DNA of 48,471 bases. Source: a virus. Below, in pieces: positions 1 through 48,471 of this stretch (its first letter is position 1; the number at the start of each line of letters is the position of its first letter). The notes beneath the pieces were generated by a model. The model was not told the origin of the DNA. It made no database searches and saw nothing but the letters and a program-made list of their open reading frames with translations. The stretch spans positions 1-48,471 of the IMG/VR virus record IMGVR_UViG_3300002460_000047. One strand, 5' to 3'. The translations under genes and the position numbers were made by a program.

Positions 1-86
1 CCATATTAACTTTATACGTTGAATAATTTGTCGAACTGGTAATGGTAATTTTCATTCTTACCTCTTTTAATAAATACATCTATATA
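1..86. repeat. Terminal direct repeat, copy 1 (identical to 48386..48471)
   Basis: Bases 1..86 (ccatattaacttta...catctatata) recur exactly at 48386..48471. The repeat spans the stop of one gene and the RBS/start of the next. Confidence 0.95.
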
Positions 87-243
87 GTTTTATTAATTTA
101 TCCTTAACTTCATCAGATTCTAAACAATAAATATTACGCTCTTTACATTTACTTACTGCTTCAACATAGCCAAAACAATTCCTCTCTAATCCAATCTCAT
201 TAGCTAAATCAACAACAGTTTTTTCATTTAATACGTGTATCAT
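67..243 (-). CDS. Hypothetical protein (58 aa)
   Basis: ATG at 241..243 forms an ATGA overlap with the polymerase stop (240..242). I preferred it over the longer track ORF start at 261. Confidence 0.55.
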   Translation of the reverse strand: MIHVLNEKTVVDLANEIGLERNCFGYVEAVSKCKERNIYCLESDEVKDKLIKLYRCIY

Positions 244-1577
244 AATCCACACTCCCACCAAGAATCTCCAACTTTAATATCATTATCAATAGTAATAGGG
301 AGATTTAAATTAAATAAATCTTTCATTACCTCATTAGTTAATGATAATACTTTTTTGATCCAACTACAAGTAAAATCTACATATTCTTCTTTACAATCAA
401 ATACAACACTGTCATGAATTGTATTTACAATCAAGAACTTATCCCTATGCTGAATACCTTCTCTAAACAATTTTCCTAACATGATTAACACAATATCTGC
501 AGTTGCAGTGCCTTGCACAATATAATTCTTCAATTTTGTAGGACTAAAAGAATATTTTTCCCCCCGTCTTTGAGCCCACAAAGGCGCCGGTTGTATTTTA
601 AAATAATATCTTCTATTGGTTGGACCAATATAATATCCCCATTCACCTTCTATATGGGCATTAACAAAGTTTTCTAATCTCCGATTATATACTGCTAACT
701 GTGGGTACATAATATCTTCTTTTTTAATTAAATCATAAATTTTTTCTTCAGAGATACCGGATAATTGATTAATTTTTTTAACACCAGCACCATACGCTCT
801 TGCAAAAGAAAATGCTTTTATTGTGCTTCTCTTTTGCACCCATTCTGGATCTTTAGAATTAATTTTATTAACCACGTAGGCATATGGAACTTCCTCGGAT
901 GCAGCTAAACGTTTGATATGAAAATCTACCCCATTAATTATATCTTGTATATAAGCTTTATCTTTAGACAAACATGCTTGAACCACAATTTCTAATTGTT
1001 TGAAATCAACCTCAAGTATCTTACCGTTTTTAAATCTAGATGTAAAATGTTGTTTTACATTTGATTCAAAAGATTTAGGTTGATTTTGAACATTAGGATT
1101 TCTGCAAGATAATCTCCCTGTTTCTGTCTCCACATGAATAAATGAACCCCGTACACAACTATCCTCATATAATAATGATTCAATTGGATTGTAATAAGTA
1201 GATAGTTGCTTAGATATTCGTCTATTATCTAATAGTAATTTACAAAAATTAGAAGCAATATTTGCATTATAATGCTTACGAATCAATGTCTGATTTCTAA
1301 AATTCTCTGAAGCAAAATAAGATAAAACTTCATCATCTACACTATAGATGCCTTCTTTCTTTGTTTTCCACTCATCTAACGATTTTAATCCCAATCCTTT
1401 AATCTTAATAATTTTCTTTACTTTTTTAGTTTTTAATTGCCCTATTCGTTCCCCAGTCTTAAATACAACAGGCTTTCCAAATTCATCACTAATAGGTTCA
1501 ATAACTTCCTTCTTTAATTCTCCTCCAAAAAGAAGACAACTTATATGCTCATTAGATGATAAATTAAATTCTATCAT
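240..1577 (-). CDS. Family A DNA polymerase, polymerase (palm/fingers/thumb) fragment, 445 aa
   Basis: Pol I motifs are present: FNLSS (FNxxSpkQ region), TGRLSCRNPNVQNQP, motif A VDFKQLEI, motif B RSTIKAFSFARAYG (Phe at the E. coli F762 position) and motif C HDSVVFD. The track start at 1589 is TTG. ATG at 1575..1577 makes an ATGA overlap with the upstream ORF. Confidence 0.9.
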   Translation of the reverse strand: MIEFNLSSNEHISCLLFGGELKKEVIEPISDEFGKPVVFKTGERIGQLKTKKVKKIIKIKGLGLKSLDEWKTKKEGIYSVDDEVLSYFASENFRNQTLIRKHYNANIASNFCKLLLDNRRISKQLSTYYNPIESLLYEDSCVRGSFIHVETETGRLSCRNPNVQNQPKSFESNVKQHFTSRFKNGKILEVDFKQLEIVVQACLSKDKAYIQDIINGVDFHIKRLAASEEVPYAYVVNKINSKDPEWVQKRSTIKAFSFARAYGAGVKKINQLSGISEEKIYDLIKKEDIMYPQLAVYNRRLENFVNAHIEGEWGYYIGPTNRRYYFKIQPAPLWAQRRGEKYSFSPTKLKNYIVQGTATADIVLIMLGKLFREGIQHRDKFLIVNTIHDSVVFDCKEEYVDFTCSWIKKVLSLTNEVMKDLFNLNLPITIDNDIKVGDSWWECGL

Positions 1578-1867
1578 GATATCTTCCAACGATCTTGTAA
1601 AATTTTTAATTGTTCTATAAAATCAGTTAAATTTGGTATGCGCACAAATGCTGATTTTGTCACTGCCCCATCAAGAAAAAAAATTTCTAATTTAAGAGAT
1701 GCAACCCTATGTAGTTGATGACAAGGGGTATACCTAATACCGCCCCCCTCTACGCTCGTAGTTGGTACTGAAAAAAATGGAGGAGTAATACCATTAAAAA
1801 GTTTAAATTCAGGCTGTAAAATCTCAAAAGGTTTTAGTAATTTATTATAATCTTCTTTATGTTTCAT
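1574..1867 (-). CDS. Hypothetical protein (97 aa) inside the polymerase split
   Basis: ORF coupled to its neighbours by start/stop overlaps at both ends (ATGA overlap with the downstream gene). No recognisable motif. It contains a locally GC-rich patch. Confidence 0.5.
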   Translation of the reverse strand: MKHKEDYNKLLKPFEILQPEFKLFNGITPPFFSVPTTSVEGGGIRYTPCHQLHRVASLKLEIFFLDGAVTKSAFVRIPNLTDFIEQLKILQDRWKIS

Positions 1868-2199
1868 TTTAATAACTCCGGATTCTCGTATATGTTACCT
1901 ATTACTTCTATATATTTAGAACGTTCGCCTTTTGGATTATAACAAAGTCTTATTTTATCAAGTATATTAAATACATATTCATCAACAATTTGATGGTCAA
2001 ACTGATTTGGTTCAAACACACTGTCAATAATTATGTCGCCCTCATATATCTCTTTACCATTCTTATCTTTTAATCCTGTATACTGTTGTACAACAGCATT
2101 GGGGTACATACATAGAGCAACACTAGTTCCACCTATATTTAATGGTTTAGTTAATTCTTCAGTTATTGGATCATAAACTCTAAACTTAATCTCTCTCAT
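1864..2199 (-). CDS. YopX-domain protein
   Basis: MREIKFRVY...QQYTGLKDKNGKEIYEGDII...VIGNIYENPELL matches the conserved YopX family pattern. Confidence 0.8.
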   Translation of the reverse strand: MREIKFRVYDPITEELTKPLNIGGTSVALCMYPNAVVQQYTGLKDKNGKEIYEGDIIIDSVFEPNQFDHQIVDEYVFNILDKIRLCYNPKGERSKYIEVIGNIYENPELLK

Positions 2200-2409
2200 T
2201 TAATCTATCCTATTATTAGGATTCTTTTTATTCCATAAATTAATTATTTTTGCATATCTCTCAGGATAAAACCAAGCCATGCCCCCTAATAATAAACTAT
2301 TTAAACCTTTATCATAATCTTTATCTGCACTGATTAATTTATGTTTTTTAGCAAGTTCAAAAACACATCTCAGCTTTTCATTATGAGATAATTGTTTAGT
2401 ATTAGTCAT
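2200..2409 (-). CDS. Hypothetical protein (69 aa)
   Basis: ORF abuts the YopX start. Its ATG overlaps the stop of the upstream mini-ORF. Confidence 0.55.
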   Translation of the reverse strand: MTNTKQLSHNEKLRCVFELAKKHKLISADKDYDKGLNSLLLGGMAWFYPERYAKIINLWNKKNPNNRID

Positions 2410-2579
2410 TTTACACCCGCCTTAATACAAATTAGATCACCACTTATAGTATGCCATAAAATACCTGACTCTTTCCAACACTCTATTCTTTCATGTTGAT
2501 GACCATTTACTTGCATATGATAAGCATAAAATATAAAGCCAAATACAAATAACATACCTATAAAATTAATATACTTCAT
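2406..2579 (-). CDS. Hypothetical small membrane protein (57 aa), below the ORF-track cutoff
   Basis: Hand translation gives MKYINFIGMLFVFGFIFYAYHMQVNGHQHERIECWKESGILWHTISGDLICIKAGVK. ATGA overlaps at both ends (2576..2579 and 2406..2409). It has a hydrophobic N-terminal helix. Confidence 0.5.
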   Translation of the reverse strand: MKYINFIGMLFVFGFIFYAYHMQVNGHQHERIECWKESGILWHTISGDLICIKAGVK

Positions 2580-2788
2580 GAATATAACTCATCTAAATCA
2601 ATATTATGACCATGTACAATTTCCCAAAATTCTTCTTTAGTCAGGGGGGCTTTTCCATATTTCTCAACTCCCCTCATATGTTCGCCAATATCATAGAGAG
2701 CCGCACACAATGCGCCTGCTTTAAGCGCTCTTAAATAGGCTTGTGCGTCCTCAGACTTGTTAAGGTTGAATTCTATTGTTATTTTCAT
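2576..2788 (-). CDS. Hypothetical protein (70 aa)
   Basis: ORF coupled to the downstream mini-ORF by an ATGA overlap. Confidence 0.55.
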   Translation of the reverse strand: MKITIEFNLNKSEDAQAYLRALKAGALCAALYDIGEHMRGVEKYGKAPLTKEEFWEIVHGHNIDLDELYS

Positions 2789-2854
2789 TATAATAACTCA
2801 CTAATAAATAATAAAATCATTAACCCACCTATAGCATAAAATAACCAATCACAT

Positions 2855-3181
2855 TCATAATTCAACATTTATATTTTCCTTTTCAAATCTGAGCCAGCAC
2901 TTTACTGTCTCTATTTCTTTTGTTACAGCATATTGAATTGTTTTAATAACTACTTTAGTATATTCAGGATTAACATTAAATACAGGGTGGGGCAATTTTG
3001 TATATAATAACTTTGGAATAGCGCCATGTATTAAATTATACCTATATCTACGATCCTCTTTTAAATTGCCTGTTTTTTTAAATCCTAATGCGTAACAAGT
3101 AAATTTTCCTTCTTGAGAATAATCAATATTCAAAGAAGAATTTTTTAATATGTCATAAATTTTATATACAAATGTAATCAT
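2855..3181 (-). CDS. Hypothetical protein (108 aa)
   Basis: The track start at 3202 is TTG. The first ATG is at 3179..3181, with AGGAG upstream. There is no convincing nuclease motif. Confidence 0.55.
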   Translation of the reverse strand: MITFVYKIYDILKNSSLNIDYSQEGKFTCYALGFKKTGNLKEDRRYRYNLIHGAIPKLLYTKLPHPVFNVNPEYTKVVIKTIQYAVTKEIETVKCWLRFEKENINVEL

Positions 3182-3329
3182 CTTTTCTAAGGCTCCTATC
3201 AATTGGTTTATATTTCGTAGTATTTTCTAATGCTTTTTGAATCCTAACACATAGAAGTAATAGTTGATGTCTAGGTATGCGTTCTAATTGTTTAATAGTA
3301 AGAATTTTTCTTTTTCTGATTAATTTCAT
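3162..3329 (-). CDS. Hypothetical basic mini-protein (55 aa)
   Basis: Hand translation gives MKLIRKRKILTIKQLERIPRHQLLLLCVRIQKALENTTKYKPIDRSLRKDDYICI. ATGA overlap with the stop of the exonuclease-domain gene (3326..3329). Confidence 0.4.
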   Translation of the reverse strand: MKLIRKRKILTIKQLERIPRHQLLLLCVRIQKALENTTKYKPIDRSLRKDDYICI

Positions 3330-4102
3330 ATCCAGTACCTCTTAGCTAAATCTATTAATTGAAGATTTACTCCAAATAACTCAATACCTAATAACTCTTT
3401 ATTTGTTGTTAATATATCTTTATTAACATGTATACCATTATACTCTATCTCAGTTGTAGCTAGCACCGCATCCATCTGTAATTCAATTAATTTAGTCATT
3501 CCAAATTCTTCAGCTTTCTTAATTTGACCTAGATACACTTGCTCAGTAGCTAACACATCATTCATCACATCCTCTAATACTAATTCTTTAGGTAAATCTG
3601 CCATATCTTTGTATTTATAAACTTCTTCTTTAGTTAAATAATAAAACAATCTATATAAATCACTTTTATTAGAATCATTCCAACAATCATCACGATTAAA
3701 TAATAAATTTTCAATATGTTTAGATCTCTCTTTCCAACCATATTTATTAACTGCAATATCTCTAAGTGCAGGATATTTATGTCTTTGCCCAGATAAAATA
3801 TATTCTGCAAGCATAGTATCCCATATTCTACCGCCTTGCTTTATCCAATCTTGTAACTGAGGAGTTTTCCATAAATATAATAAATCAAATTTAATATTAT
3901 GCCCCACTAATAAATCAATACATTGTAAATACGTCCACCATTTACATAAATGATTTGGCTGATCTTTATAAATACTTACCACTTGATTAAGCTTACATAA
4001 TCCCAAAGCAACTATCTCGTTATATTGAGGATTGGCTTTCCTCCCAAACTTTTCCTGAATCCCTGTTTCTAAATCTATAACAATATAGTTTAAATTTATC
4101 AT
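3326..4102 (-). CDS. Family A DNA polymerase, 3'-5' exonuclease fragment (258 aa)
   Basis: DEDD motifs are present: ExoI VIDLETG, ExoII GHNIKFDL and ExoIII-like VMNDVLATEQVY. The C-terminus (...IEYNGIHVNKDIL...LIDLAKRYWI) ends exactly where Pol I proteins continue into the FNxxS segment that opens the 240..1577 ORF. Confidence 0.85.
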   Translation of the reverse strand: MINLNYIVIDLETGIQEKFGRKANPQYNEIVALGLCKLNQVVSIYKDQPNHLCKWWTYLQCIDLLVGHNIKFDLLYLWKTPQLQDWIKQGGRIWDTMLAEYILSGQRHKYPALRDIAVNKYGWKERSKHIENLLFNRDDCWNDSNKSDLYRLFYYLTKEEVYKYKDMADLPKELVLEDVMNDVLATEQVYLGQIKKAEEFGMTKLIELQMDAVLATTEIEYNGIHVNKDILTTNKELLGIELFGVNLQLIDLAKRYWI

Positions 4103-4215
4103 AAAGTCAACACTGCGTAAATAAGTATTAATTCAATTAAAATAGTGTGTAAATATAGTACTACAATATGTTTACATATTATTTCTACCATCTCCCCCTC
4201 AAAAGAGTTACTCAT
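4099..4215 (-). CDS. Hypothetical hydrophobic mini-protein (38 aa)
   Basis: Hand translation gives MSNSFEGEMVEIICKHIVVLYLHTILIELILIYAVLTL. ATGA overlaps at both ends. Confidence 0.4.
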   Translation of the reverse strand: MSNSFEGEMVEIICKHIVVLYLHTILIELILIYAVLTL

Positions 4216-4364
4216 ATTCTATTCCCATTTAGTAACAATATCTTCTCTATATTCTTATAATGTCTTTGATTATTTAACTGCTTTAAATATCGCTTAGCAT
4301 CTGCAATATGTGCAAATGATCTATTTAATCTCCAGATTGATGTGCGAACAAAGTAGATATTCAT
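4212..4364 (-). CDS. Hypothetical mini-protein (50 aa)
   Basis: Hand translation gives MNIYFVRTSIWRLNRSFAHIADAKRYLKQLNNQRHYKNIEKILLLNGNRI. TAATG overlap upstream and ATGA overlap downstream. Confidence 0.4.
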   Translation of the reverse strand: MNIYFVRTSIWRLNRSFAHIADAKRYLKQLNNQRHYKNIEKILLLNGNRI

Positions 4365-4639
4365 TAATTATCAATCTCATCTAATAATTCATCAATTTCT
4401 TTATTAATTTTTATAAGCTCGTGCTCATTATAGATGCTCCATACTTGTGGAAGGCGAGTTATCAGTGTTACTTTCCGATTAATTAACTCCTCTATAGCAC
4501 TCTTTAATATAGTAGATTTTCTAGACTGCCTCAATAATGATACTTTATCACTTACCTTATCTAGTAAATCCTCTGCTTTCTTGGCCTCATCCGCCAATTC
4601 TTTAACTTCTTTTTTAAACCATTTATTTAATATATTCAT
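4364..4639 (-). CDS. Hypothetical coiled-coil protein (91 aa)
   Basis: ORF with a charged heptad-like sequence, coupled to its neighbours. Confidence 0.6.
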   Translation of the reverse strand: MNILNKWFKKEVKELADEAKKAEDLLDKVSDKVSLLRQSRKSTILKSAIEELINRKVTLITRLPQVWSIYNEHELIKINKEIDELLDEIDN

Positions 4640-4818
4640 CTGTTGCCCTTTAATATTCGCTCAACATCAAAAATCAAATGGGCTAAAGCATCTAAGACTT
4701 CAATATCCTTTATTAACTCGTCTTTAGATTTATAAGAACCGTTTGGATTTTGACAATTTGTTTTAATTAAAGTTCTTAAATCATCAGTAAAATTTATAAA
4801 ATCACCAGATTTAATCAT
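4636..4818 (-). CDS. Hypothetical protein (60 aa)
   Basis: ORF with 4-nt overlaps at both ends. Confidence 0.55.
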   Translation of the reverse strand: MIKSGDFINFTDDLRTLIKTNCQNPNGSYKSKDELIKDIEVLDALAHLIFDVERILKGNR

Positions 4819-5033
4819 AATTGTTTTCCTACATCATTAATATTATTCGTCAATGCTTCTATTCCAGATTCAATATCTTTATGTTCTGCAACTAAGTCTA
4901 TTTTACCTTCTCCCATATCTAAAGCAGTATAAATCTTATCCTTATATTCAACTAAATAAATTCCCCAAGTAAAATTCTGGATACCTTTCACATCCGTCCA
5001 ACTAACATTAAGTACTCTATTAAGCCTCTTCAT
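4815..5033 (-). CDS. Hypothetical protein (72 aa)
   Basis: ORF with a 4-nt overlap to the downstream gene. Confidence 0.55.
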   Translation of the reverse strand: MKRLNRVLNVSWTDVKGIQNFTWGIYLVEYKDKIYTALDMGEGKIDLVAEHKDIESGIEALTNNINDVGKQL

Positions 5034-5196
5034 GTTTACTCCAAATAGATTCTAAGTATTCTTTTTGATTATTAATAATCTTATTATCATTTAAACACTT
5101 ATTACATACTTCAATGTAACCTTTATTAAGAGATGTAATAACTACTGCTGATAATAAACCTGTAACACTTTTGTGACACATCTCACATTTACCCAT
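5020..5196 (-). CDS. Zinc-ribbon mini-protein (58 aa)
   Basis: Hand translation gives MGKCEMCHKSVTGLLSAVVITSLNKGYIEVCNKCLNDNKIINNQKEYLESIWSKHEEA, with CxxC...CxxC. TAATG overlap with the upstream gene. Confidence 0.45.
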   Translation of the reverse strand: MGKCEMCHKSVTGLLSAVVITSLNKGYIEVCNKCLNDNKIINNQKEYLESIWSKHEEA

Positions 5197-5432
5197 TAGA
5201 TCTTACCTCTAAGAGTAGACTTAATAATATATGTTTCTGACCTCTCTGTTCTTAAAACAGGTGTTGTTGCTGTGCACATAGCTCGCCAATGATAATCAGA
5301 TTTGTTTTTCCAACAGTGTAACCTATCCTCTCTTTTCATAGCATCGTCATAATTAGTATAAGCTTTATCAACAACCCAAGTTTTCTTCTTAACTTTCATA
5401 TCTTTTACTTTCATTACTACAAATATTTTCAT
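5196..5432 (-). CDS. Hypothetical protein (78 aa)
   Basis: ORF, basic, coupled to its neighbours. Confidence 0.55.
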   Translation of the reverse strand: MKIFVVMKVKDMKVKKKTWVVDKAYTNYDDAMKREDRLHCWKNKSDYHWRAMCTATTPVLRTERSETYIIKSTLRGKI

Positions 5433-5503
5433 ATATCCCCATTATCAATCATAGCTAACAAGATTCCTATTGCAAATCCCCCAGCAAATAACATAAAATT
5501 CAT
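5429..5503 (-). CDS. Possible 24-aa transmembrane micro-protein
   Basis: MNFMLFAGGFAIGILLAMIDNGDI. ATGA overlap with the downstream gene. The RBS is weak, so this is tentative. Confidence 0.25.
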   Translation of the reverse strand: MNFMLFAGGFAIGILLAMIDNGDI

Positions 5504-5517
5504 TAAATCTAATTCCA

Positions 5518-5742
5518 CTATTCTAATCCTTCTAGCCGTTGTTTAAGATCTAATACTTCTAATCTTAATAATTGATTCTCTTTACGTAATAAGTGTAAAA
5601 CCTCTCTATATTGATTTTTATCTTTTTTTTCACAATCATGGCACGTATCCCATTTTTCTCCATTGATAACCGTACAAGTTGTTTCATCAATAGGGCTAAA
5701 ACACAAACAACAATAACATCCTTTACCTAGAATAGTAGTCAT
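5518..5742 (-). CDS. Cys-rich zinc-binding / leucine-zipper protein (74 aa)
   Basis: CYCCLC...C...CHDC cluster followed by a heptad Leu repeat, LLRKENQLLRLEVLDLKQRLEGLE. Confidence 0.55.
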   Translation of the reverse strand: MTTILGKGCYCCLCFSPIDETTCTVINGEKWDTCHDCEKKDKNQYREVLHLLRKENQLLRLEVLDLKQRLEGLE

Positions 5743-5743
5743 C

Positions 5744-6322
5744 TTAATCTTCTTTAATTATATCAAGATTATCGTCACAACCAGGGGATACTTTTGCAGC
5801 GACACTCAATGCAACGCGCAAATCATTTTCAATATGGTCATCTTTACACATATAGTTTAATGCTAATAGGGCGCCCCAAGCCATTAATCCTCCGCAACCC
5901 GTTGCATAGGGTAAAGATAATCTATTAATATGAATACCTTTTTCATGAACACAACATGAAAATAATTCTCCAGAAATCCCTATAAGAATCTCTGAGGAAC
6001 TACAATTTTTAACTTCACTATTTACTAACATGTGTCTTTTTTGTAAACAAGCCACTACTGCATTATAAAAAGAACCCATAACATAATCAAACACAAATTC
6101 TTTTCTTCCTCTTTTAGGAATGGGCATGTATTTAACAATTAAATCACATAAATAAGCATCGCCAGTGCCTGCTAAAATAACTTTATCTCTTTTTGTAATT
6201 TTAGCCCCGGGCATTTCTTGCATCTTTTGCATACCCCAAGAGCAACGTCTATCGGCACCAAAAACTAATTTACCATCTTTATCCTTAACTACAACTATAC
6301 AAGTATTTGATGTTGGCTGCAT
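5744..6322 (-). CDS. HslV / proteasome beta-subunit-like Ntn-hydrolase peptidase
   Basis: By-eye alignment to E. coli HslV: T-CIVVVKDKDGKLVFGADRR vs TTIVSVRRNGHVVIAGDGQ, KVILAGTGDA vs KVIAGFAGGTADA, and ATGCGG vs AIGSGGPYA. A short MQPTSN propeptide precedes the Thr. Confidence 0.6.
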   Translation of the reverse strand: MQPTSNTCIVVVKDKDGKLVFGADRRCSWGMQKMQEMPGAKITKRDKVILAGTGDAYLCDLIVKYMPIPKRGRKEFVFDYVMGSFYNAVVACLQKRHMLVNSEVKNCSSSEILIGISGELFSCCVHEKGIHINRLSLPYATGCGGLMAWGALLALNYMCKDDHIENDLRVALSVAAKVSPGCDDNLDIIKED

Positions 6323-6337
6323 CGATTAATCACCTCT

Positions 6338-7978
6338 TCATTTTAGTAACTTATCTACGGTTACTAACCTACCTGTGTTTTCTATATAATACAAGTTATC
6401 CACATAGCCTGTCAAGCCTGTTATACGATTTTTTAATACTTTCACTTTTGTTTTTGTCTTTTCAATATCATCTGTCATATTACGTTCAAGCGCTATTATA
6501 ACATCGCTAAGCTGCTCAATAGCAGCACTTCCTCTAGCATCAGTCATGTGCACTTCTCTTCCTTCATCCCAAGATTGGCCTCTAAAAGGCCGTTTTAAAT
6601 GGCATACATTAATAATACTAACATTCATATCATGAGCTAATTTTCTTAAATTTTTCATAAGGATATCTATATCTTTTCTTTCTCCTTGCTCTCCCCCCAT
6701 ATCGTAAGTTATCATAGACATATGATCTAATATTAATAATTTACACCCTCCTAATTTTACCAGACATTGCAAATTATACAACAACTCATCGCCATTTAGG
6801 GACATAAAAGAAGCATCAATAAATTGCACTCTTCCAGATCTAATATACTTCTCGTAGGAGATATCGAATTTTTCTTTTAATACTTCCGGATCTTCCTCTA
6901 ATTCAAATAAAGGTAGATTATTATCTATTGCAATAAACCCTAAGCCAGATAAGCGAACGGGCTCCTCTAAATACGCTACCCCAAGTTTTAAATCTTCATT
7001 TGAATTAAGTAATTCATATCCTAATTCTCTAGTAAAACTACTCTTCCCAATTCCTGATCCCGCAAGTAAAGTATAGATACGCCCTAATTTAACACCTCTA
7101 ATGACACCATTTAATTGTGGGAGAAAAGTAATCGATAATCCTTTTGTATCTTTCTTTAACAGTTCTGCTTTAGTTGGTAATACAATTGAAGATGGTACAT
7201 ATTGTTTATAATTTAAACAATCTTTTAATAATGCATCTCTAGTACCTAACGTTAAATACTCATTCGGATCATGGTATCGCAATTCAATAGTATATATCTT
7301 TTCGGGGGTGAATAATCTAGAAGCATCTTTAAGCGCTGTAATACCTGCATCATCAGAATCAAAACAAAATATAAGTTTTTCATATTTATTTAATATATTA
7401 TAGTTGCGCTTAATTTCTGATTTAGTTTGTGAGCCTGCTCCCCCAGTTAAATAAAAAATATCTCCCTTAATAGTTCCCTCTCCAATGTCTGCTTCATATA
7501 AACTCATTGCATCTATGGCTCCCTCACAAATAATAGCTTCCTTTGCACCAATAATGAATGGGGCGTGCCCTAAAACACATTCATTACTGTTGCCTTGCCA
7601 ATAAAACTCTTTAGGGATTAATCTTACTTTTTGAGCGCACAATTCTCCATTCTTATTATAATGATTTTCTAAATGTGCTTTCTTTCCTTTTAATGTAAGA
7701 ACCTGATAATTAAATGCTCTACATGTATCTACTGATATACCCCTATCTTCTAGGCCCTCAAAATAACCAGAAGTAATTAAATTATTATTAATCATAGAGG
7801 TATCTCTAGTATTTGTCACAAAAGATGTAACATTTTGTGACATATTTTTATTACTATTGTACTCACAATTAGGTGTCTGACAACGAGAGCGCTCTTTGCC
7901 ATAGTTATCAGTCCAGAAACAAACATTATTACTGGAACCACAGTAATCACATGATTCCCTGCGGTTAGTGGTTGCCAT
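6338..7978 (-). CDS. Bifunctional primase-helicase (T7 gp4-like)
   Basis: N-terminal Cys4 zinc finger (CDYCGSS...CQTPNC), TOPRIM (ICEGAIDAMS, FDSDDAG), and DnaB-family helicase Walker A (AGSGIGKSS) and Walker B (LLILDH). Confidence 0.9.
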   Translation of the reverse strand: MATTNRRESCDYCGSSNNVCFWTDNYGKERSRCQTPNCEYNSNKNMSQNVTSFVTNTRDTSMINNNLITSGYFEGLEDRGISVDTCRAFNYQVLTLKGKKAHLENHYNKNGELCAQKVRLIPKEFYWQGNSNECVLGHAPFIIGAKEAIICEGAIDAMSLYEADIGEGTIKGDIFYLTGGAGSQTKSEIKRNYNILNKYEKLIFCFDSDDAGITALKDASRLFTPEKIYTIELRYHDPNEYLTLGTRDALLKDCLNYKQYVPSSIVLPTKAELLKKDTKGLSITFLPQLNGVIRGVKLGRIYTLLAGSGIGKSSFTRELGYELLNSNEDLKLGVAYLEEPVRLSGLGFIAIDNNLPLFELEEDPEVLKEKFDISYEKYIRSGRVQFIDASFMSLNGDELLYNLQCLVKLGGCKLLILDHMSMITYDMGGEQGERKDIDILMKNLRKLAHDMNVSIINVCHLKRPFRGQSWDEGREVHMTDARGSAAIEQLSDVIIALERNMTDDIEKTKTKVKVLKNRITGLTGYVDNLYYIENTGRLVTVDKLLK

Positions 7979-8534: not shown

Positions 8535-8604
8535 AAATACTCATTAATATCACTAATGACAATAACATAAGCCATATACCAAATGCTGTAATAATTATAC
8601 TCAT
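8527..8604 (-). CDS. Possible 25-aa transmembrane micro-protein
   Basis: MSIIITAFGIWLMLLSLVILMSIYD. ATGA overlap with the upstream gene stop. Confidence 0.3.
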   Translation of the reverse strand: MSIIITAFGIWLMLLSLVILMSIYD

Positions 8605-8885
8605 TTTATTTTACCCATTTCTGATATGCCTTTAAATAATTGCTGAAACTCTAAAGGATTGGGCCACACTGTTATATGTTGATCTACGGGGTTAGCCTCA
8701 CTGGTATTATATTCCAAATTCCAATGTTTATTAGATAAATAATTTACTATAAATTTCATTCGATTAATCGCAATCTCTTTAGTAAGTGCAATACCCCATA
8801 ACTCAAATGATATGGTATTATTTTCAAATGCTACTATTTGATAACCCTCATTCCATTTTTTCATGATCATTATCATAAATTTCAT
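8601..8885 (-). CDS. Hypothetical protein (94 aa)
   Basis: ORF in the early-gene chain. Confidence 0.6.
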   Translation of the reverse strand: MKFMIMIMKKWNEGYQIVAFENNTISFELWGIALTKEIAINRMKFIVNYLSNKHWNLEYNTSEANPVDQHITVWPNPLEFQQLFKGISEMGKIK

Positions 8886-8887
8886 AG

Positions 8888-9202
8888 TTAATTTAACTCC
8901 TCTTCCACCAATAGAGTTGTTATATTACCGTTCTCATATTCCTTTATTGCAAACTTAATTCGTTTTATTAATTCCCCATTTACAAGAATATCACACCTAT
9001 CGTAATTTCGTAAAGGGTTTAATTTAAAAAATTTTAAGTCACTTTGAATGGCTTCTTTTACTGTTTTTAATTGCTCTCCATATTCATTCATTAAAATGGA
9101 ATATGTTCTTTGCACACACTTTCCATCTTTATATAATCTATACAATATCTTAGACTCTTTATTGTAATTAGGTATGTTTCTTACCTTCAATTTATTACGC
9201 AT
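8888..9202 (-). CDS. Hypothetical protein (104 aa)
   Basis: ORF in the early-gene chain. Confidence 0.6.
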   Translation of the reverse strand: MRNKLKVRNIPNYNKESKILYRLYKDGKCVQRTYSILMNEYGEQLKTVKEAIQSDLKFFKLNPLRNYDRCDILVNGELIKRIKFAIKEYENGNITTLLVEEELN

Positions 9203-9217
9203 AAGAACCTCTTTTAA

Positions 9218-9592
9218 TTAGTAGTAATAATATAACTTATTGATTTTATCAAACAGCCAATCAGAAGCTTCAGGTTGCTCTATGGACGACATTAATTTAC
9301 CTAATATCTGTACTAAGCCCCCTCTATGATCGTTTAATGTAGCGAATCTATTAGCGTCTAACGCCATATAATAATCTTCCTTATAAATATCTACAATATT
9401 TTGCACTATTTGTTCATCATATAAAGCAAAACTTTCTCCAATATTATTCTGCTTACATGATGCTATCTCATTGTATTCTATACCTTTCTTCCATAAGAAT
9501 TTAGATAGTAATAACTGATTATTCCTATTCTCTTCTAAAGAATTACTATCTTTCCATATACTTATAATAAATACTGGAGAATAAATATTCAT
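9218..9592 (-). CDS. Hypothetical protein (124 aa)
   Basis: ORF in the early-gene chain. Confidence 0.6.
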   Translation of the reverse strand: MNIYSPVFIISIWKDSNSLEENRNNQLLLSKFLWKKGIEYNEIASCKQNNIGESFALYDEQIVQNIVDIYKEDYYMALDANRFATLNDHRGGLVQILGKLMSSIEQPEASDWLFDKINKLYYYY

Positions 9593-9599
9593 ATAACCT

Positions 9600-9944
9600 C
9601 TATATCATCATTAATAGATAACGAGCATATTCTTTCTGCTCGTCATTAAGATCGCTATAAGGCATTTCCCATATCACTTCTTCTTCTCTTGCCATACTCC
9701 AGTCTTTACAACCGTGATATTCTGGGTTCCTATCAAAGTCTTCTTCATATGCTTCTACTTGAGTTAAATAAACCTTATCTTCAATACTATCATTTATATA
9801 AAGACTATCTAAGTCAGAAGGGTTTCCGGCATCATGTACTAAACAATACTTCCCCTCTTCCCATTTAACTCTTTTAAATTTAACATGTGCTTTATGGAGA
9901 ATATTAGGATTATATTCACATTCATAACGATATTTATAGCACAT
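9600..9944 (-). CDS. Hypothetical acidic protein (114 aa)
   Basis: ORF with a 1-nt overlap to the upstream gene. Confidence 0.6.
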   Translation of the reverse strand: MCYKYRYECEYNPNILHKAHVKFKRVKWEEGKYCLVHDAGNPSDLDSLYINDSIEDKVYLTQVEAYEEDFDRNPEYHGCKDWSMAREEEVIWEMPYSDLNDEQKEYARYLLMMI

Positions 9945-10117
9945 TAAGAACCCTCCTCTGTAATTTTATTAACAATACCCTTCGTTAAATCAAACAATTG
10001 TTTACATTCATCACTGCAAAATTCAAACTCTCCTATGTAATCAATTGCCCACCACTCTTCTTCCCAAATAGGGTTGTATAACTGGCAAGGGCACGGTAGA
10101 ATTCTTTTAAAGGCCAT
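9944..10117 (-). CDS. Hypothetical Cys-containing protein (57 aa), first gene of the early arm
   Basis: The track start at 10126 is GTG. ATG at 10115..10117 lies 8 nt downstream of AGAGGAG. Confidence 0.55.
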   Translation of the reverse strand: MAFKRILPCPCQLYNPIWEEEWWAIDYIGEFEFCSDECKQLFDLTKGIVNKITEEGS

Positions 10118-10197
10118 TATCTTCACTCCTCTTTAATTCTTGCCTACTTTGAGAGCCTAGGTAGGCACTAGGTATAGAGGATACTCTCATACCATTA

Positions 10198-10225
10198 ATA
10201 ATACCATACCTATTAAAAAATACAA
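10198..10225 (-). promoter_or_regulatory. Candidate early leftward sigma70-type promoter
   Basis: On the minus strand, TTGTAT - 16 nt - TATTAT, about 80 nt upstream of the first early gene. It overlaps the 13-mer direct repeats. Confidence 0.3.
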
Positions 10226-10243
10226 GCCCTCTATTAAAAAATA
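10210..10243. repeat. Two copies of CTATTAAAAAATA spaced 21 bp apart
   Basis: Exact 13-mers at 10210..10222 and 10231..10243, two helical turns apart, overlapping the candidate early promoter. Confidence 0.8.
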
Positions 10244-10308
10244 TCTTTTAAGGCTATTTTAAGGTAGAGTAAAAATTATCAGTGTCTAAAATATATTTAT
10301 TTACCCCA

Positions 10309-10337
10309 TTGACAAATAAAGGATTATGGTATATAGT
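10309..10337 (+). promoter_or_regulatory. Rightward sigma70-type promoter
   Basis: TTGACA (10309..10314) - 17 nt - TATAGT (10332..10337). Confidence 0.55.
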
Positions 10338-10343
10338 TAAGTA

Positions 10344-10800
10344 TTCAGGAGCAATATACGTATAAGGCTTTACTATGGGGTATGATTGTTCACTACCTTA
10401 CATAGCATTAGATAAGACAGTCTAATGATGCAAAAGACGAAGCCTAAGGATTACGAAACAGCCTAAAATGCATACTGGGGTTAAGAGCCCTGTCATCAAG
10501 GAAAGAGAAGATGGTTAACTGTCCATCACCTATAAAGCAAGGGTAGGTAAATACAGTGGCTGATAATATTATACGTAAGATAGGATATGAAATAATCAGG
10601 AGGATAGATCACATAGTAGTAATACTGTGTCCAGGTACTAAGGGAGAAGGGAGATAGACGATAAGGTTCTTGATTCTAACTTATTGTCTACCAGATATAA
10701 CTAGCTCTAAAGCATATAAAGCTGTACATTAGTAACAAGATAAGCTATATTATATGTATCCAGGAGCAAGGTATGTCTTTAGACGTAGTATGAAAAAGAG
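10344..10800 (+). ncRNA. Candidate structured non-coding transcript / long leader (about 460 nt)
   Basis: Lies downstream of the 10309 promoter. No ORF longer than about 16 codons has an RBS. Stems: 10406..10427 (7 bp), 10611..10630 (8 bp with G-U) and 10655..10690 (11 bp with one G-U that pairs only on the plus-strand RNA). Confidence 0.3.
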
Positions 10801-10811
10801 GAGATAGGACC

Positions 10812-10925
10812 ATGTTAAGTATATGTAAAATATGTAGAGATGAGATCTATTATACTCAAAGTTATGAAAGAGTATCTGATGGTTATGCTCATGTAGGATG
10901 TTTAAATGATTTATACGAAGATTAA
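10812..10925 (+). CDS. Cys-rich mini-protein (37 aa)
   Basis: Hand translation gives MLSICKICRDEIYYTQSYERVSDGYAHVGCLNDLYED. Preceded by AAGAGGAGATAGG. Confidence 0.45.
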   Translation: MLSICKICRDEIYYTQSYERVSDGYAHVGCLNDLYED

Positions 10926-10966
10926 AGAGTTGTGTAGCTTATATCCTAGTGGGGTAGTATTTATCT

Positions 10967-11152
10967 ATGCCTATATATGATTTTCAGTGCCCTGCGTGTG
11001 GTATTGTACAAGAAGTCTTACAAAAGAACTTTAAATCAGAGATACAACTCTGTGAATGTGGCGCTGAAATGGAAAAGATTACAGGGAGAACTAGCTTATT
11101 ACTTAAGTTTAAAGGTAAGGGTTTCTATGTTAATGATTATAAGAGGAAATAG
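10967..11152 (+). CDS. FmdB-family zinc-ribbon putative regulatory protein
   Basis: MPIYDFQCPACG...CECGAEMEKI matches the FmdB / CxxC_CxxC_SSSS pattern (MPxYxYxCxxCG). Confidence 0.6.
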   Translation: MPIYDFQCPACGIVQEVLQKNFKSEIQLCECGAEMEKITGRTSLLLKFKGKGFYVNDYKRK

Positions 11153-11155
11153 TAT

Positions 11156-11248
11156 ATGTTAATGACATTAGGTTTGGTTCTTCTTACGTTTGTTGCTTAT
11201 TGTGTCGTAGCTGCGGTACTCATTTGTTGCCTTATATTAAAGAAATAG
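11156..11248 (+). CDS. Possible 30-aa transmembrane micro-protein
   Basis: MLMTLGLVLLTFVAYCVVAAVLICCLILKK, with AGAGGAAA upstream. Confidence 0.35.
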   Translation: MLMTLGLVLLTFVAYCVVAAVLICCLILKK

Positions 11249-11260
11249 AGGAATACTATT

Positions 11261-11338
11261 ATGATAACCGTTATGTGCTTAGTTTATGTATATATTGTAG
11301 TTTTATTTATTTTAGGTTATCTTATCTTTAAAGAGTGA
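11261..11338 (+). CDS. Possible 25-aa transmembrane micro-protein
   Basis: MITVMCLVYVYIVVLFILGYLIFKE, with GAGGAA upstream. Confidence 0.3.
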   Translation: MITVMCLVYVYIVVLFILGYLIFKE

Positions 11339-11626
11339 TTATTTCTGTTTTACTACAACCTCTAGATTAAGATTGTGCATATCTTTGATAAACTTCTTAT
11401 GATTACATATCTTAATATTTTTGTTTGTTACCTCTTCATGGATTACACAGTATCCGTAGTGATCTTGTAACCAACGTTTCACAATAGCCTTAGCTTGATC
11501 AGAAGATTCTAAACTACCTTCAACATGGTCGTATATTGTGATAAATACGTTATGTTCTTGATGATCTTTTTTAAGCTTAACTATTTGTAATGTAGGTATA
11601 AACCTATAATATTTGATAGTAGTCAT
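11339..11626 (-). CDS. Hypothetical protein (95 aa) with its own promoter
   Basis: ORF with AAGAGGAG upstream. It sits isolated in the control region, converging on the plus-strand mini-genes. Confidence 0.6.
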   Translation of the reverse strand: MTTIKYYRFIPTLQIVKLKKDHQEHNVFITIYDHVEGSLESSDQAKAIVKRWLQDHYGYCVIHEEVTNKNIKICNHKKFIKDMHNLNLEVVVKQK

Positions 11627-11651
11627 GATTAATACTCCTCTTTATACCTTC

Positions 11652-11679
11652 AGTATATACCTCTTATAAAAAATGTCAA
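11652..11679 (-). promoter_or_regulatory. Leftward sigma70-type promoter for 11339..11626
   Basis: On the minus strand, TTGACA (complement of 11674..11679) - 16 nt - TATACT (complement of 11652..11657). Confidence 0.5.
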
Positions 11680-11930
11680 TACCGTGTGTATTTTATCCTT
11701 TGTGTCGGATAAACATAGACTTATCCGTTATAGGGGATTGTCAACCTTATTCTATACATTGTCAACTAAATAAGTATACAATATTACTAATATTATTTAG
11801 TAATCAAGTACACATAATGGTCAATAGTTCATTCAATACGTGAACTACTGCTCAAAGTAAGTACTATCCGTTAATACCCTAATTATAGGGTTTATTGACA
11901 CACAGAAGGATATTGTGAGTGCCAATAGTG

Positions 11931-12108
11931 GTTATAACATATATAACAAAGCGGATGATATAGTATTACATATTCTATGTCGTGCCACTAATAAGATATG
12001 TATCCCCGGCACAACAGTACATACACATATATAATCATAGTATATACAATAGGTTATAACTATATGATTAATAGTGCATATGTCTACCAACTATCAATGA
12101 GTTATAAC
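11931..12108. repeat. Three copies of the palindrome GTTATAAC
   Basis: Copies at 11931..11938, 12053..12060 and 12101..12108, each followed by A/T-ATA. They flank a very AT-rich tract (12020..12050). Confidence 0.8.
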
Positions 12109-12191
12109 TATGCCCTTTAATGCTCCATTATCGCCCCTTTAGCCAGCGTAATGATGACCTAGTAGGTGACTACTAGTGCTACTAAGATCGT

Positions 12192-12221
12192 TTGACAGAG
12201 GTGATTTATTCTGCCTAGAAT
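12192..12221 (+). promoter_or_regulatory. Rightward sigma70-type promoter
   Basis: TTGACA (12192..12197) - 18 nt - TAGAAT (12216..12221). Confidence 0.45.
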
Positions 12222-12234
12222 AAGGTATTTTTAA

Positions 12235-12265
12235 CACCCCCTAGACCCCCCATAGGGGTGGGGTT
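12235..12265 (+). other. Conspicuous C-run/G-run interrupted hairpin
   Basis: caCCCCCtagaCCCCCCataGGGGtGGGG. The two C runs can pair with the two G runs. It starts about 10 nt after the predicted start site of the 12192 promoter. Confidence 0.5.
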
Positions 12266-12466
12266 GATTTGTAGTGGTATAGGTGGTCAGCTCTATACGA
12301 GGTCAAATTTTCAAGTAATCTTAAGGTTTTCTTAAGAAGAGTTTGTAATACTTGTAATCGACACATATGTCCATATTTGACATTACGAAGAGTGGGAACT
12401 AAAGGTAGTTATTGCTCGTAACTGTCAAAAAATGACAGTAAATAGAAAATATATTTAGATTACCTG

Positions 12467-12495
12467 TTGACAATATTCATTTTATCTGCTACACT
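12467..12495 (+). promoter_or_regulatory. Rightward sigma70-type promoter (candidate late-operon promoter)
   Basis: TTGACA (12467..12472) - 17 nt - TACACT (12490..12495). It is preceded by the hairpin 12422..12438. Confidence 0.55.
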
Positions 12496-12499
12496 TACT

Positions 12500-12960
12500 A
12501 CAAGTGGTGAAATATTGTACTAAAATTACTTAATAAATTTCATCATGAAGCCTCCGGTTGTGGGATAAGTCAACTATGACGCTAGGAAACGAGACTAGTG
12601 ACTCGGGAGAACAGAACCTACGGGCGTGAAGAACGCATTAGTCCCTATAAAGAGGGATATTTATAAGGGCAGATAAACGCTGCCCACTTTTAACTTAGTG
12701 GCTACCTTTATGGTAGCCATATGTATTATCTGGGGGAGATGCTTAGGGCAAGCCTAAAATTTCCTCTAATTGAGGATAACCACGAACCCACTGGTATTAG
12801 GCACGAGTTACGCTGTACTAGGTTCAGTCAGCAATCCTTCCTTAACAAAGAAGGATAGAATTACTCTATAAGTCCTGTCCTCAAGAATAATAACGTTCGC
12901 TATTCGCGAACCAAAGATAACACTAAGTGTCACTTTATGTAACTAAATGGGTAAAATAAT
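12500..12960 (+). ncRNA. Candidate structured leader / ncRNA upstream of the late operon (about 460 nt)
   Basis: No RBS-preceded ORF. Perfect stems at 12667..12685, 12699..12719 (8 bp), 12834..12856 (7 bp) and 12895..12911 (6 bp). G/C content is visibly higher than in flanking genes. Confidence 0.3.
12667..12691 (+). terminator. Terminator-like hairpin inside the late leader
   Basis: GGGCAG-ataaacg-CTGCCC followed by acTTTT. It lies between the 12467 promoter and the first late gene. Confidence 0.35.
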
Positions 12961-37698: not shown

Positions 37699-37870
37699 CA
37701 AATTAAGCGATGAAGAAATAGATCAAATTGTCTTAAAAGTATGTGATACTATTGAAGACCGATTATATCATAATGTTGGGCATGGAGTAATCCGATTAGC
37801 TTGGCGAGCCGTTCTTATTGGTTTAATCGTACTAGCGGCATATGGGGCAGGGATTCATTTTTTTAAATAA
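37688..37870 (+). CDS. Small membrane protein (60 aa), holin or spanin-like candidate
   Basis: Has a C-terminal TM helix (LAWRAVLIGLIVLAAYGAGI). It is the last gene of the late operon, next to the lysis enzymes. Confidence 0.4.
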   Translation: MSNNKLSDEEIDQIVLKVCDTIEDRLYHNVGHGVIRLAWRAVLIGLIVLAAYGAGIHFFK

Positions 37871-38439
37871 TATAAATAAATATTTTTTGGTTTAGTTTTC
37901 ACATATATAGCTAAACCTTCTTCTAAGTCTTTTTTTAATCTTGCTGCAAACGGCTTCAATTTACCTTTATATGTTGTTCTAATGGTTTTATCATGGTATC
38001 GTTTACCGTCAGATAACCTCAGAATAATTTTATTAGCGGGCGATTGTCCTACTAACATAAAATTACTTGCTTTATAAATAACTCCTGTATGACCGTAACT
38101 TAAATCGCTATAACTAATAATCACTTTTACATCTGTATATTTTCTTAAATAGCGCAATGCTTTACCAATAAACCAACTCTCTGTATTTTTAGGAGTGTTA
38201 TCAATACAAACTAATCTTCTAAGTTCCATGATTTCCTGTTCAGATGCTACATATTTTTTCCATTGATTTTTCATCGCCAATCTTCCAAATATCATTCCTC
38301 CAATTAATAACCCTTCTGCATCATTAATTTTAAAACAATAATCTGAAATCACTCCATTAATATTATGGCTATAATGATATTTTTCAATAAAATCTCGAAT
38401 ATCATCTCGACCACAAGAAGAAAAATGATATGGGATCAT
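37855..38439 (-). CDS. GNAT-like protein resembling Mom-family DNA adenine-modification enzymes
   Basis: The N-terminal pattern IEKYHYSHNINGVISDYCFKI...LLIGGMIFG fits the HY(L/S)H...fg...l.G...fG signature I associate with Mom-like/GNAT phage proteins. This is from memory only. Confidence 0.3.
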   Translation of the reverse strand: MIPYHFSSCGRDDIRDFIEKYHYSHNINGVISDYCFKINDAEGLLIGGMIFGRLAMKNQWKKYVASEQEIMELRRLVCIDNTPKNTESWFIGKALRYLRKYTDVKVIISYSDLSYGHTGVIYKASNFMLVGQSPANKIILRLSDGKRYHDKTIRTTYKGKLKPFAARLKKDLEEGLAIYVKTKPKNIYLYYLKK

Positions 38440-42311: not shown

Positions 42312-43145
42312 TTACCTCCGGATCTTAATCAATTCTTTAACTTCATTAAACACAGTCTCTGGAATATGCCATTTCTGGTATAACTCTCTCACCTTCATTT
42401 CGTGTTGAGACATATCAACATCTTTCAATTCTTCTTTAAGTTTCTTAAGATATCTCGATTTCTTTAATTCTTTTGCTTGATCAACTTTTCCTTGCAATAC
42501 TAGCCAATTATATATGCCGGGAATATTATCAATTCGATCACCAGTAACTACTTGCATCCAAAAATTAAAACTAGCTTCTTGCTCATCAATATAGACTAAG
42601 ACTCTAGATTTTAAATTATAATGATATCCGGGTATCATTCGTAAATCCTTATCTATACTAGCAATATAGAGCATTTCATAATTATTATACAGATTATATT
42701 GCTCTGTTGCAAGTTTTCCGATAGCATCGTCCGCCTCTTCCCCTTCGATAATTTCCGCACTGTAGTCACGCACCAATAAATTTCTAACTTGTTGATAAAA
42801 ATGGGGTTTAGGTTTATGCGCTCTATTTTCTTTATATACCTTAATAGACGCTAAATTATATCTAAAATTCTTTTTAATATTCGGATGAGTGATGTATAAT
42901 CTATAGTTACGAATGTTTAAATCCGAAAAAATAGAATTCATTTTAGAACGTAAATTTATTTGTAATTGAGCTTCTGGACAAAGTCGTCTATATCTATAGA
43001 TTTCTCCACCATTTTGGGTTTGTGCGTGTTCTGCTTTACCTTTTGTTTTATATAAATGCCCATTACAACAATAAAAAGATCGTTCATTCGATAAAGCAAT
43101 CATATAGACTAAAATATCGCCATCAATTGCTAATAGCTTACTCAT
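42312..43145 (-). CDS. 5'-3' exonuclease / flap endonuclease (T7 gp6-like, PIN + H3TH)
   Basis: LLAIDGDILVY, EADDAIG and VTGDRIDNIPGI. The ATG at 43143..43145 overlaps the SpoVR stop (ATGAGTAA). The longer track start is hydrophobic and unlikely. Confidence 0.75.
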   Translation of the reverse strand: MSKLLAIDGDILVYMIALSNERSFYCCNGHLYKTKGKAEHAQTQNGGEIYRYRRLCPEAQLQINLRSKMNSIFSDLNIRNYRLYITHPNIKKNFRYNLASIKVYKENRAHKPKPHFYQQVRNLLVRDYSAEIIEGEEADDAIGKLATEQYNLYNNYEMLYIASIDKDLRMIPGYHYNLKSRVLVYIDEQEASFNFWMQVVTGDRIDNIPGIYNWLVLQGKVDQAKELKKSRYLKKLKEELKDVDMSQHEMKVRELYQKWHIPETVFNEVKELIKIRR

Positions 43146-47635: not shown

Positions 47636-47646
47636 GAAGTTACTCC

Positions 47647-48150
47647 TCAAACCCCTTCTTCAGCTTCTTTTGTAAGATTTTGTACCAACTCTAATGCTTC
47701 TGATAATTCTGTAGCCGTAATGCTCCTAGTTCCCGAACGGCAATTTGCAATAGCAAGATCAACCGCTGCTTTGACCATCATTCCCGTACGAGCACCGTTT
47801 GAATCATATCTTGTAGTTTTAGAACTCGCAGTAAATGGCGGCTTTTCGGAGCTTCTCGATGTGCTTGGTTTTGATGACTTAGTAGTAGTTGTTTCGGTTA
47901 CCTCTCCTAAAATTTTAATAATTTTATTTGATGTGCCTGTAGCGGTTGTTTGCTTATCTACATAAGCTTGGACACTGTCGCCAGCTTTTAATGCCGGAGG
48001 AACATCTATTCCTGCAAATTGAAAGAACTCTTCATTATCATCTGTTGTATAAACATGTCTATTATATTTATCACCACTAACTTTCGCAGTAAACGGACCT
48101 TTTACTTCTACATCTACAACTGTAAATTTAACTTCATTCAAATGTTTCAT
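47647..48150 (-). CDS. Hypothetical protein: N-terminal beta-rich (OB-like?) domain, Ser/Thr-rich linker, acidic C-terminus
   Basis: The composition and architecture resemble an SSB-like layout. No SSB is recognised elsewhere in the genome. This is speculative. Confidence 0.3.
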   Translation of the reverse strand: MKHLNEVKFTVVDVEVKGPFTAKVSGDKYNRHVYTTDDNEEFFQFAGIDVPPALKAGDSVQAYVDKQTTATGTSNKIIKILGEVTETTTTKSSKPSTSRSSEKPPFTASSKTTRYDSNGARTGMMVKAAVDLAIANCRSGTRSITATELSEALELVQNLTKEAEEGV

Positions 48151-48440: not shown

Positions 48441-48471
48441 TCTTACCTCTTTTAATAAATACATCTATATA
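48386..48471. repeat. Terminal direct repeat, copy 2 (identical to 1..86)
   Basis: Exact 86-bp match to the window start. Confidence 0.95.

Follow-up and report, generated by a model that had tools for sequence, protein, structure and literature searches.

Family A DNA polymerases are textbook single-chain polymerases, and a genome in which such an enzyme is distributed over two genes, with seven others in between, raises the question of whether the two products still constitute one polymerase. We addressed this question in the IMG/VR virus record IMGVR_UViG_3300002460_000047, positions 1 to 48,471; this whole stretch of 48,471 nucleotides (nt) is called the window below. The window is a complete, circularly assembled genome of ~48.4 kb (~48,385 bp), bases 1-86 being identical to bases 48386-48471, and the early/replication module, which wraps across the window ends, is encoded by the minus strand. 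An initial annotation, made from the sequence and its open reading frames (ORFs), had proposed that a family A polymerase (PolA) is encoded here by two genes, designated piece 1 and piece 2 in the present work. We found that the two pieces together encode one complete family A polymerase with all motifs intact.

Piece 2 matched PF00476 (E 4e-40) and contained the remaining part of the thumb, a beta-hairpin insertion (residues 277-317 of the fused sequence), the TGR/PNxQN motif and motifs A, B and C. In a motif alignment against Klenow, motifs A (D), B (K..F..Y G) and C (HD) were intact, as was TGR/PNxQN. The position of Klenow E883 is occupied by S in the window and also in the split and intact relatives shown in this alignment, except for L005 (D) and L003 (C) (L and P numbers are our designations for relatives). 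A DnaQ-like 3'-5' exonuclease with intact Exo I-III is located at the N-terminal end of piece 1; its carboxylates D10, E12, D73 and D182 were invariant in our homologue alignment (A1) and aligned with Klenow Exo I-III. Piece 1 as a whole matched PHROG 9556, annotated as DNA polymerase (E 9e-38), and its match to PF01612 was weak. The usual family A organization, exonuclease and polymerase domains on one polypeptide, was not found; the domains are instead distributed over two ORFs that are 1748 nt apart. No second DNA polymerase was found in the window, and the single PolA appears there as two matches. Besides its ATG, piece 2 has an alternative in-frame TTG start upstream, at 1589, which would give a protein of 449 amino acids (aa).

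To place the break, a profile of 30 homologues was aligned with solved structures, and the joined pieces were compared, again by alignment, with a Klenow sequence and with relatives whose PolA is intact. In the profile, the terminal 'YW' of piece 1 aligned with '...ELAGQE/FNINSP' of Bst Pol I (the slash marks the break), directly before the FN(L/I)xS motif. The intact relative L010 runs through this point as 'NKHWN-PATPFNSGSPKQ'. Compared with intact relatives and with Klenow/Bst the junction is seamless, with zero loss and zero duplication, so that the break before FN(L/I)xS and the completeness of the enzyme, both deduced in the initial annotation, were borne out. An AlphaFold2 model of the joined 703-aa sequence, based on an 82-row alignment, had a mean predicted local distance difference test score (pLDDT) of 94.7 and a predicted template modelling (TM) score of 0.92, and a single-sequence run gave a pLDDT of 33. 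Foldseek superimposed the joined model on the complete Bst Pol I large fragment with a TM score of 0.83, normalised to the target, and the overall fold is Klenow-like. The profile match, the motifs and this full PolA fold of the fused sequence establish that the two genes specify a genuine family A polymerase.

In the model, the cut (between residues 258 and 259) lies inside a 12-residue coil (255-266) that connects a long helix (228-254) with a short one (267-275). Piece 1 had been labelled as the exonuclease domain. It does hold the exonuclease, but it ends with ~55 residues of the polymerase domain, which form helix 203-222, strand 224-226 and helix 228-254. The cut is thus intradomain, within the polymerase domain, and not a clean exonuclease/polymerase domain split. 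We take helix 228-254 to be thumb helix H of the Klenow/Bst nomenclature, pairing with long helix I (361-392, in piece 2). The idea that this cut corresponds to the insertion point of the thioredoxin-binding domain in T7 gp5 was also considered and was dropped, since the helix correspondence was not confirmed.

If the break is not peculiar to the window, it should recur in related phages, and a survey of intact versus split polA had also been suggested in the initial annotation. Homologues of piece 1 were drawn from a collection of 5.8 billion proteins (word-indexed search, best 120 matches). They were mostly stand-alone proteins of 224-285 aa whose stop, following '(R/K)YW', shares its alignment column with that of piece 1, and others (~380-440 aa) read through this point and stop after 'TGRLSS..PNLQNIP'; in ~24 of 30 homologues the stop was at the window's alignment column. 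No intact enzyme was present among the best 120 matches, from which it appeared that every close relative is split. This was overturned by an exhaustive search of 1.84 billion 50%-identity representatives, in which matches were mapped to window coordinates and the 81 with E <= 1e-30 were classified. Three cut sites were distinguished: site 1, before FN(L/I)xS; site 2, after PNLQNIP; and site 3, at fused residues ~347-363. The window's cut (site 1) was present in 39 of the 81 nearest representatives and an intact PolA in 23; 13 were cut at site 2 only, three at site 3 only (~residue 347), and three were fragments. Roughly two thirds of the nearest relatives are therefore split, at three recurrent loops. 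Dozens of lineages, at 40-58% identity, have retained the site 1 break together with intact pieces. When viral contigs were searched with a single polymerase piece as the query, no related loci were retrieved, whereas a profile query did retrieve them.

The genes between the pieces differ among these relatives (Table 1). Gaps at site 1 range from -23 nt to 1748 nt, the window's gap being the largest found at this site, and their contents are unrelated (CHAP, ClpP, RNase T, small ORFs, or none). Adjacent ORFs at the window's cut site occur in L008, L009 and L014. Several genomes have the enzyme in three or four pieces, and the four-piece sets of L014 and L093 span the whole enzyme, except for ~15-20 unmatched positions at the site 3 junction. 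Mobile elements were encountered at site 2. The gap of L052 has an HNH gene, and L021 encodes an otherwise intact 954-aa PolA (9855-12719, plus strand) with an intein (residues ~445-687) just before motif A, detected as a Pfam Intein_splicing match (E 2.3e-6) that does not reach the family's curated cut-off. The last piece of L102 (525 aa; 8557-10134, plus strand) is extended at its N-terminus by 274 aa, in which a weak intein-like match (E 0.0057) was obtained immediately ahead of the motif A region; the extension may represent an intein at site 2 that is degenerate or split. In the 13 genomes cut at site 1 that were inspected, no comparable element was seen at that site.

Two further observations were made around polA in these relatives. 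In L006, the final PolA piece is followed downstream by a 96-aa ORF (9252-9542, plus strand) that repeats a portion of the motif A region, corresponding to window fused residues 448-497, and looks like a residual partial copy. The polA flanks of L004, L005, L006, L100 and L101 recurrently contain AAA+/ClpB-like ATPases, ClpP or proteasome-like proteases and SbmA/BacA-like membrane proteins, in the replication module; genes of these kinds are unusual for phages of ~45 kb.

The gap in the window is 96% coding and is filled by seven ORFs on the same strand, one of which is a YopX-domain protein, as the initial annotation had described. The gene junctions in this chain are ATGA or TAAATG, the sole exception being a 66-nt spacer. 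The ATG of ORF 1 overlaps the stop of piece 1 (ATGA at 3326-3329), and the coupling of piece 2 to the preceding gene was also seen, the stop of ORF 7 overlapping the piece 2 start (ATGA at 1574-1577). Against Pfam, PHROGs and NCBIfam, the YopX protein was the only one of the seven that could be assigned to a family; ORF 2 gave only a faint restriction-endonuclease-like match (E 0.05), which is not significant. The guanine-cytosine content of the insert (0.294) matches that of the two pieces (0.287 and 0.300). Homologues of only two of the seven insert genes were detected in the fetched relatives: that of ORF 3 is upstream of an intact polA in L010, and that of ORF 6 is outside an intact polA in L016. 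Because both are outside an intact polA, the gap genes are ordinary, interchangeable accessory genes rather than a polymerase-associated cassette.

Searches for signatures of mobile or self-splicing elements in this region were negative. The same three databases revealed no HNH, GIY-YIG or LAGLIDADG homing endonuclease domain in the seven ORFs, and Rfam gave no match of any kind, group I and group II ribozymes included, at E <= 1 in window positions 1..5000 on either strand. With regard to intein splicing blocks, the C-terminal end of piece 1 and the N-terminal end of piece 2 have no surplus residues relative to intact homologues. The description of the insert as not intron-like is therefore supported. 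Direct or inverted repeats flanking the insert were limited to AT-rich chance matches. No terminator was found on the coding strand of the region, and promoter-like sites occurred at chance rate.

Table 1. Genes of the split polA locus in the window and arrangement of polA pieces in related genomes
Feature	Position	Strand	Description
PolA piece 1	3326..4102	-	258 aa, end ...LIDLAKRYWI*
Insert ORF 1	3162..3329	-	55 aa, no family match (Pfam, PHROGs, NCBIfam)
Insert ORF 2	2855..3181	-	108 aa from ATG; 115 aa from TTG at 3202
Spacer	2789..2854	.	66 nt, sole non-coding stretch in gene chain
Insert ORF 3	2576..2788	-	70 aa
Insert ORF 4	2406..2579	-	57 aa, hydrophobic N-terminus, no family match
Insert ORF 5	2200..2409	-	69 aa, no family match
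Insert ORF 6	1864..2199	-	111 aa, YopX-domain protein, PF09643 E 3e-18, phrog_98 E 5e-30
Insert ORF 7	1574..1867	-	97 aa, no family match
PolA piece 2	240..1577	-	445 aa, ATG start, N-terminus MIEFNLSS
L008, L009			sole cut at site 1; ORFs overlap (gaps of -8 and -23 nt)
L012			230 aa, 225 nt, 420 aa
L101			230 aa, CHAP-domain gene, 441 aa
L100			242 aa, three small ORFs, 428 aa
L011			three pieces: 238, 153, 279 aa
L005			231 aa, one ORF, 165 aa, five ORFs, 284 aa
L004			266 aa, five genes including RNase T, 174 aa, Endonuclease VII and more small ORFs, 245 aa
L102			257 aa, five ORFs, 163 aa, three ORFs, 525 aa
P0015's contig			233 aa, ClpP and one ORF, 163 aa, Endonuclease VII, 286 aa
L014	4410-6892		four consecutive ORFs: 235, 100, 82, 245 aa
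L093	7956-10925		four consecutive ORFs: 273, 114, 68, 273 aa

The explanation that we favor, with a probability of roughly 0.8, is that a single family A replicative polymerase gene underwent fission at a structurally permissive surface loop, namely the coil that links the long helix ahead of FN(L/I)xS to the short helix after it. The two ORFs would at first have been adjacent, a state still present in L008, L009 and L014, and the new intergenic junction would later have gained seven accessory genes of ordinary kinds. The nine genes, which are translationally chained, are probably co-transcribed, and the 258-aa and 445-aa products would assemble non-covalently into one Klenow-like heterodimer, presumably an active enzyme. 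In this complex the long helix of piece 1 would pack on elements of piece 2, including long helix 361-392. With a cut at this intradomain position, the chains should be intertwined and not merely docked, i.e., they should form an obligate heterodimer rather than a polymerase with a loosely tethered proofreader. Two non-covalently assembling polypeptides are the best reading of the locus because no intron, intein or homing endonuclease was detected, and the recurrence of the same break in dozens of diverged relatives makes the two-polypeptide enzyme proposed in the initial annotation likely.

Several points weigh against fission followed by reassembly. The AlphaFold2 model was built from a chain in which the two pieces had been joined artificially, and complex formation and activity are predictions, here as for related split enzymes. 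Co-transcription is suggested solely by the packing of the genes and the absence of a terminator. A neighbor-joining tree of the 50%-identity representatives was star-like, with split and intact states interspersed (e.g., split L009 pairs with intact P0139), and this tree is poorly resolved; the break may have been inherited or may have arisen repeatedly. Finally, a host scan of genome collections yielded only whole-phage contigs in unrelated metagenome-assembled genomes (Gallionella, Pedobacter, Coriobacteriia and Aquiluna), and for this reason we make no host call.

Four other explanations of the locus were weighed. It is conceivable that the pieces work independently, piece 2 as an exonuclease-less polymerase and piece 1 as a free-standing 3'-5' exonuclease acting in trans. 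Stand-alone DnaQ-like exonucleases exist, and the pieces are 1.75 kb apart; PolAs without an exonuclease domain, such as CCPol, have also been described (PMC10201439). However, the ~55 polymerase-domain residues of piece 1, with their long helix, would be useless or unstable alone, while piece 2 would be left without this helix; the cut is in a loop within a single continuous, confidently modelled fold, and the exonuclease domain is reportedly required for PolA stability (PMC10201439). We therefore regard independent function as unlikely. An interrupted gene could also signify that the polymerase is a decaying pseudogene and that the phage uses another polymerase, and DNA polymerase is indeed wholly absent in some T7-like cyanophage clades (PMC12695635). 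This is very unlikely, as both pieces are full-length ORFs in which every catalytic residue is conserved and which remain intact throughout the dozens of lineages sharing the break, and the window retains a full T7-type primase-helicase and other replication genes, with no other polymerase found.

Joining of the pieces at the RNA or protein level, by a group I or II intron, trans-splicing, a split intein or ribosomal bypassing, would restore a single chain, and group I introns and inteins are frequent in phage polymerase genes (references in PMC10580990); the relative L021 even has an intein, at a different site. Nevertheless, the empty Rfam search, a gap occupied almost entirely by seven chained ORFs, and a seamless junction whose termini have no extra intein-like residues all argue against it, and the gaps of relatives hold unrelated genes or none, unlike a conserved ribozyme. 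Such joining is highly improbable. With regard to a sequencing or assembly artefact, which the initial annotation had named as a possible refutation, the window was assembled from metagenomic data and its ends overlap by 86 nt; but the same arrangement of a 258-aa piece, seven ORFs and a 445-aa piece was found, at 99.8-100% identity, on 16 independently assembled contigs that come from ENA, JGI and elsewhere and represent several samples and assemblers, and the break is common to relatives. A seeming 16-nt indel in one sibling contig (L089) was a run of scaffold Ns. The chance of an artefact is thus negligible.

The survey also permits a broader, more tentative proposal, in which our confidence falls somewhat short of even: PolA of this clade of uncultured phages (~42-48 kb) may be a modular, multi-subunit enzyme which underwent recurrent fission at at least three loops, is composed of 2-4 polypeptides and has junctions that serve as preferred landing sites for accessory genes, with up to 1.75 kb gained in the window. 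If so, there would be natural replicases of two to four polypeptides (L004, L005, L011, L014, L093 and L102), including the first natural three- and four-piece PolAs, and intradomain splitting would be tolerated or even selected, rather than being a rare accident. If the pieces reassemble, the loops are natural, evolution-tested split points, which could inform the design of Klenow/T7-type polymerases that are split or assemble conditionally. Automated annotation pipelines in which a single ORF is expected will miscall such phages as having no proofreading domain or an incomplete polymerase.

The window represents a lineage without a close sequenced isolate, since megablast of positions 1..6500 against 50,697 phage records gave zero matches; the best annotated relatives of its PolA are ~32% identical at the protein level. 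Elsewhere in the genome, a contiguous trio on the minus strand encodes a PrkA/YeaG serine kinase (45722-47650, Pfam E 2.5e-137), DUF444/YeaH (44574-45725) and SpoVR/YcgB (43138-44577). PrkA homologues were detected by tblastn in 17 of the 50,697 phage records, chiefly jumbo or huge phages and Thermus phages. A Mom-family protein (37855-38439, minus strand; PF25680 E 7.6e-32) suggests a DNA-modification function, and a Mom gene is likewise located in the early region of the relative L100.

It is useful to compare this locus with known genes in pieces. The precedents offered in the initial annotation, nrdA of Aeromonas phage Aeh1 split by mobE and T4 topoisomerase genes 39/60, are indeed functional phage enzymes in pieces, reassembled as subunits. 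They concern other enzymes, however, and in Aeh1 one homing endonuclease gene both causes and occupies the split, whereas no endonuclease is detectable in the window's insert. In Aeromonas phages 44RR and 25, a PolB-type polymerase is reportedly encoded by two cistrons, gp43A and gp43B, whose products form an active complex (work attributed to Petrov, Ratnayaka and Karam, 2010); the gap is said to consist of a spacer that is not translated and in some cases includes a gene for a homing endonuclease, and to contain mobile DNA in phage 25. This polymerase belongs to family B, and its gap has no multi-gene accessory set like that of the window. Polymerase genes of the SPO1, Bastille and phiL7 type are interrupted by introns, but neither a ribozyme nor a homing endonuclease was detected in the window; similarly, no intein or split intein was recognized at the window junction, in contrast to the Intein_splicing match at site 2 of L021.

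Much closer precedents are S-SBP1/P-SSP7, ICP2 and MEP401. Fission of the exonuclease and polymerase genes was presented as a first case, an oddity, in S-SBP1-like T7-like cyanophages by Czernecki et al. 2023 (PMC10201439), the sole study devoted to a split PolA. There, the ORFs are adjacent, the split has a frameshift origin, the cut is at a clean domain boundary, and the AlphaFold2 complex of S-SBP1 matched the model of the uninterrupted Syn5 PolA, i.e., reassembly was predicted (PMC10201439). Split PolA has been used as a clade-B marker among T7-like cyanophages (PMC12695635), and a split polymerase was reported in another cyanophage lineage by Flores-Uribe et al. (10.1101/325100). The P-SSP7 record NC_006882 annotates a 'DNA polymerase exonuclease subunit' and a 'DNA polymerase I', whose ORFs overlap by 40 nt. 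The window resembles S-SBP1, S-TIP37 and P-SSP7 in having an exonuclease-bearing ORF and a polymerase ORF, no intron or intein, and predicted non-covalent reassembly. However, the P-SSP7 cut is at the exonuclease/polymerase domain linker, ~55-60 residues upstream of the window's 258/259, such that residues 21-56 of its polymerase subunit correspond to window fused residues 216-251. In addition, S-SBP1/P-SSP7-type ORFs are adjacent and overlapping, whereas the window's pieces are parted by seven genes. The lineage differs as well, because the window has no ORF large enough for a T7-type RNA polymerase.

In ICP2/VP41s3 (Zobellviridae) and in MEP401-type OM43 phages, PolA, which ranks with the best protein matches among annotated phages (~32% identity to that of the window), is also encoded by two ORFs, at times with one small ORF between them; in the MEP401 type it is split at site 2 (PMC10580990). 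The cut in the ICP2/MEP401 type follows TGRLSS..PNLQNIP and precedes motif A, giving products of ~400 and ~295 aa. It is, in ICP2, ~170 residues downstream of the window's cut, while piece 2 of the window is continuous over fused residues 258-703; the gaps of 9-243 nt compare with 1748 nt in the window. A literature search, itself incomplete, found no description of three- or four-piece PolAs or of kilobase-scale gene sets between PolA pieces. Noteworthy are the intradomain cut, the size of the gap and the repeated fragmentation of PolA across the clade, into as many as four pieces. Split PolA as such is already known; what is new here is the position of the cut and the genes in the gap.

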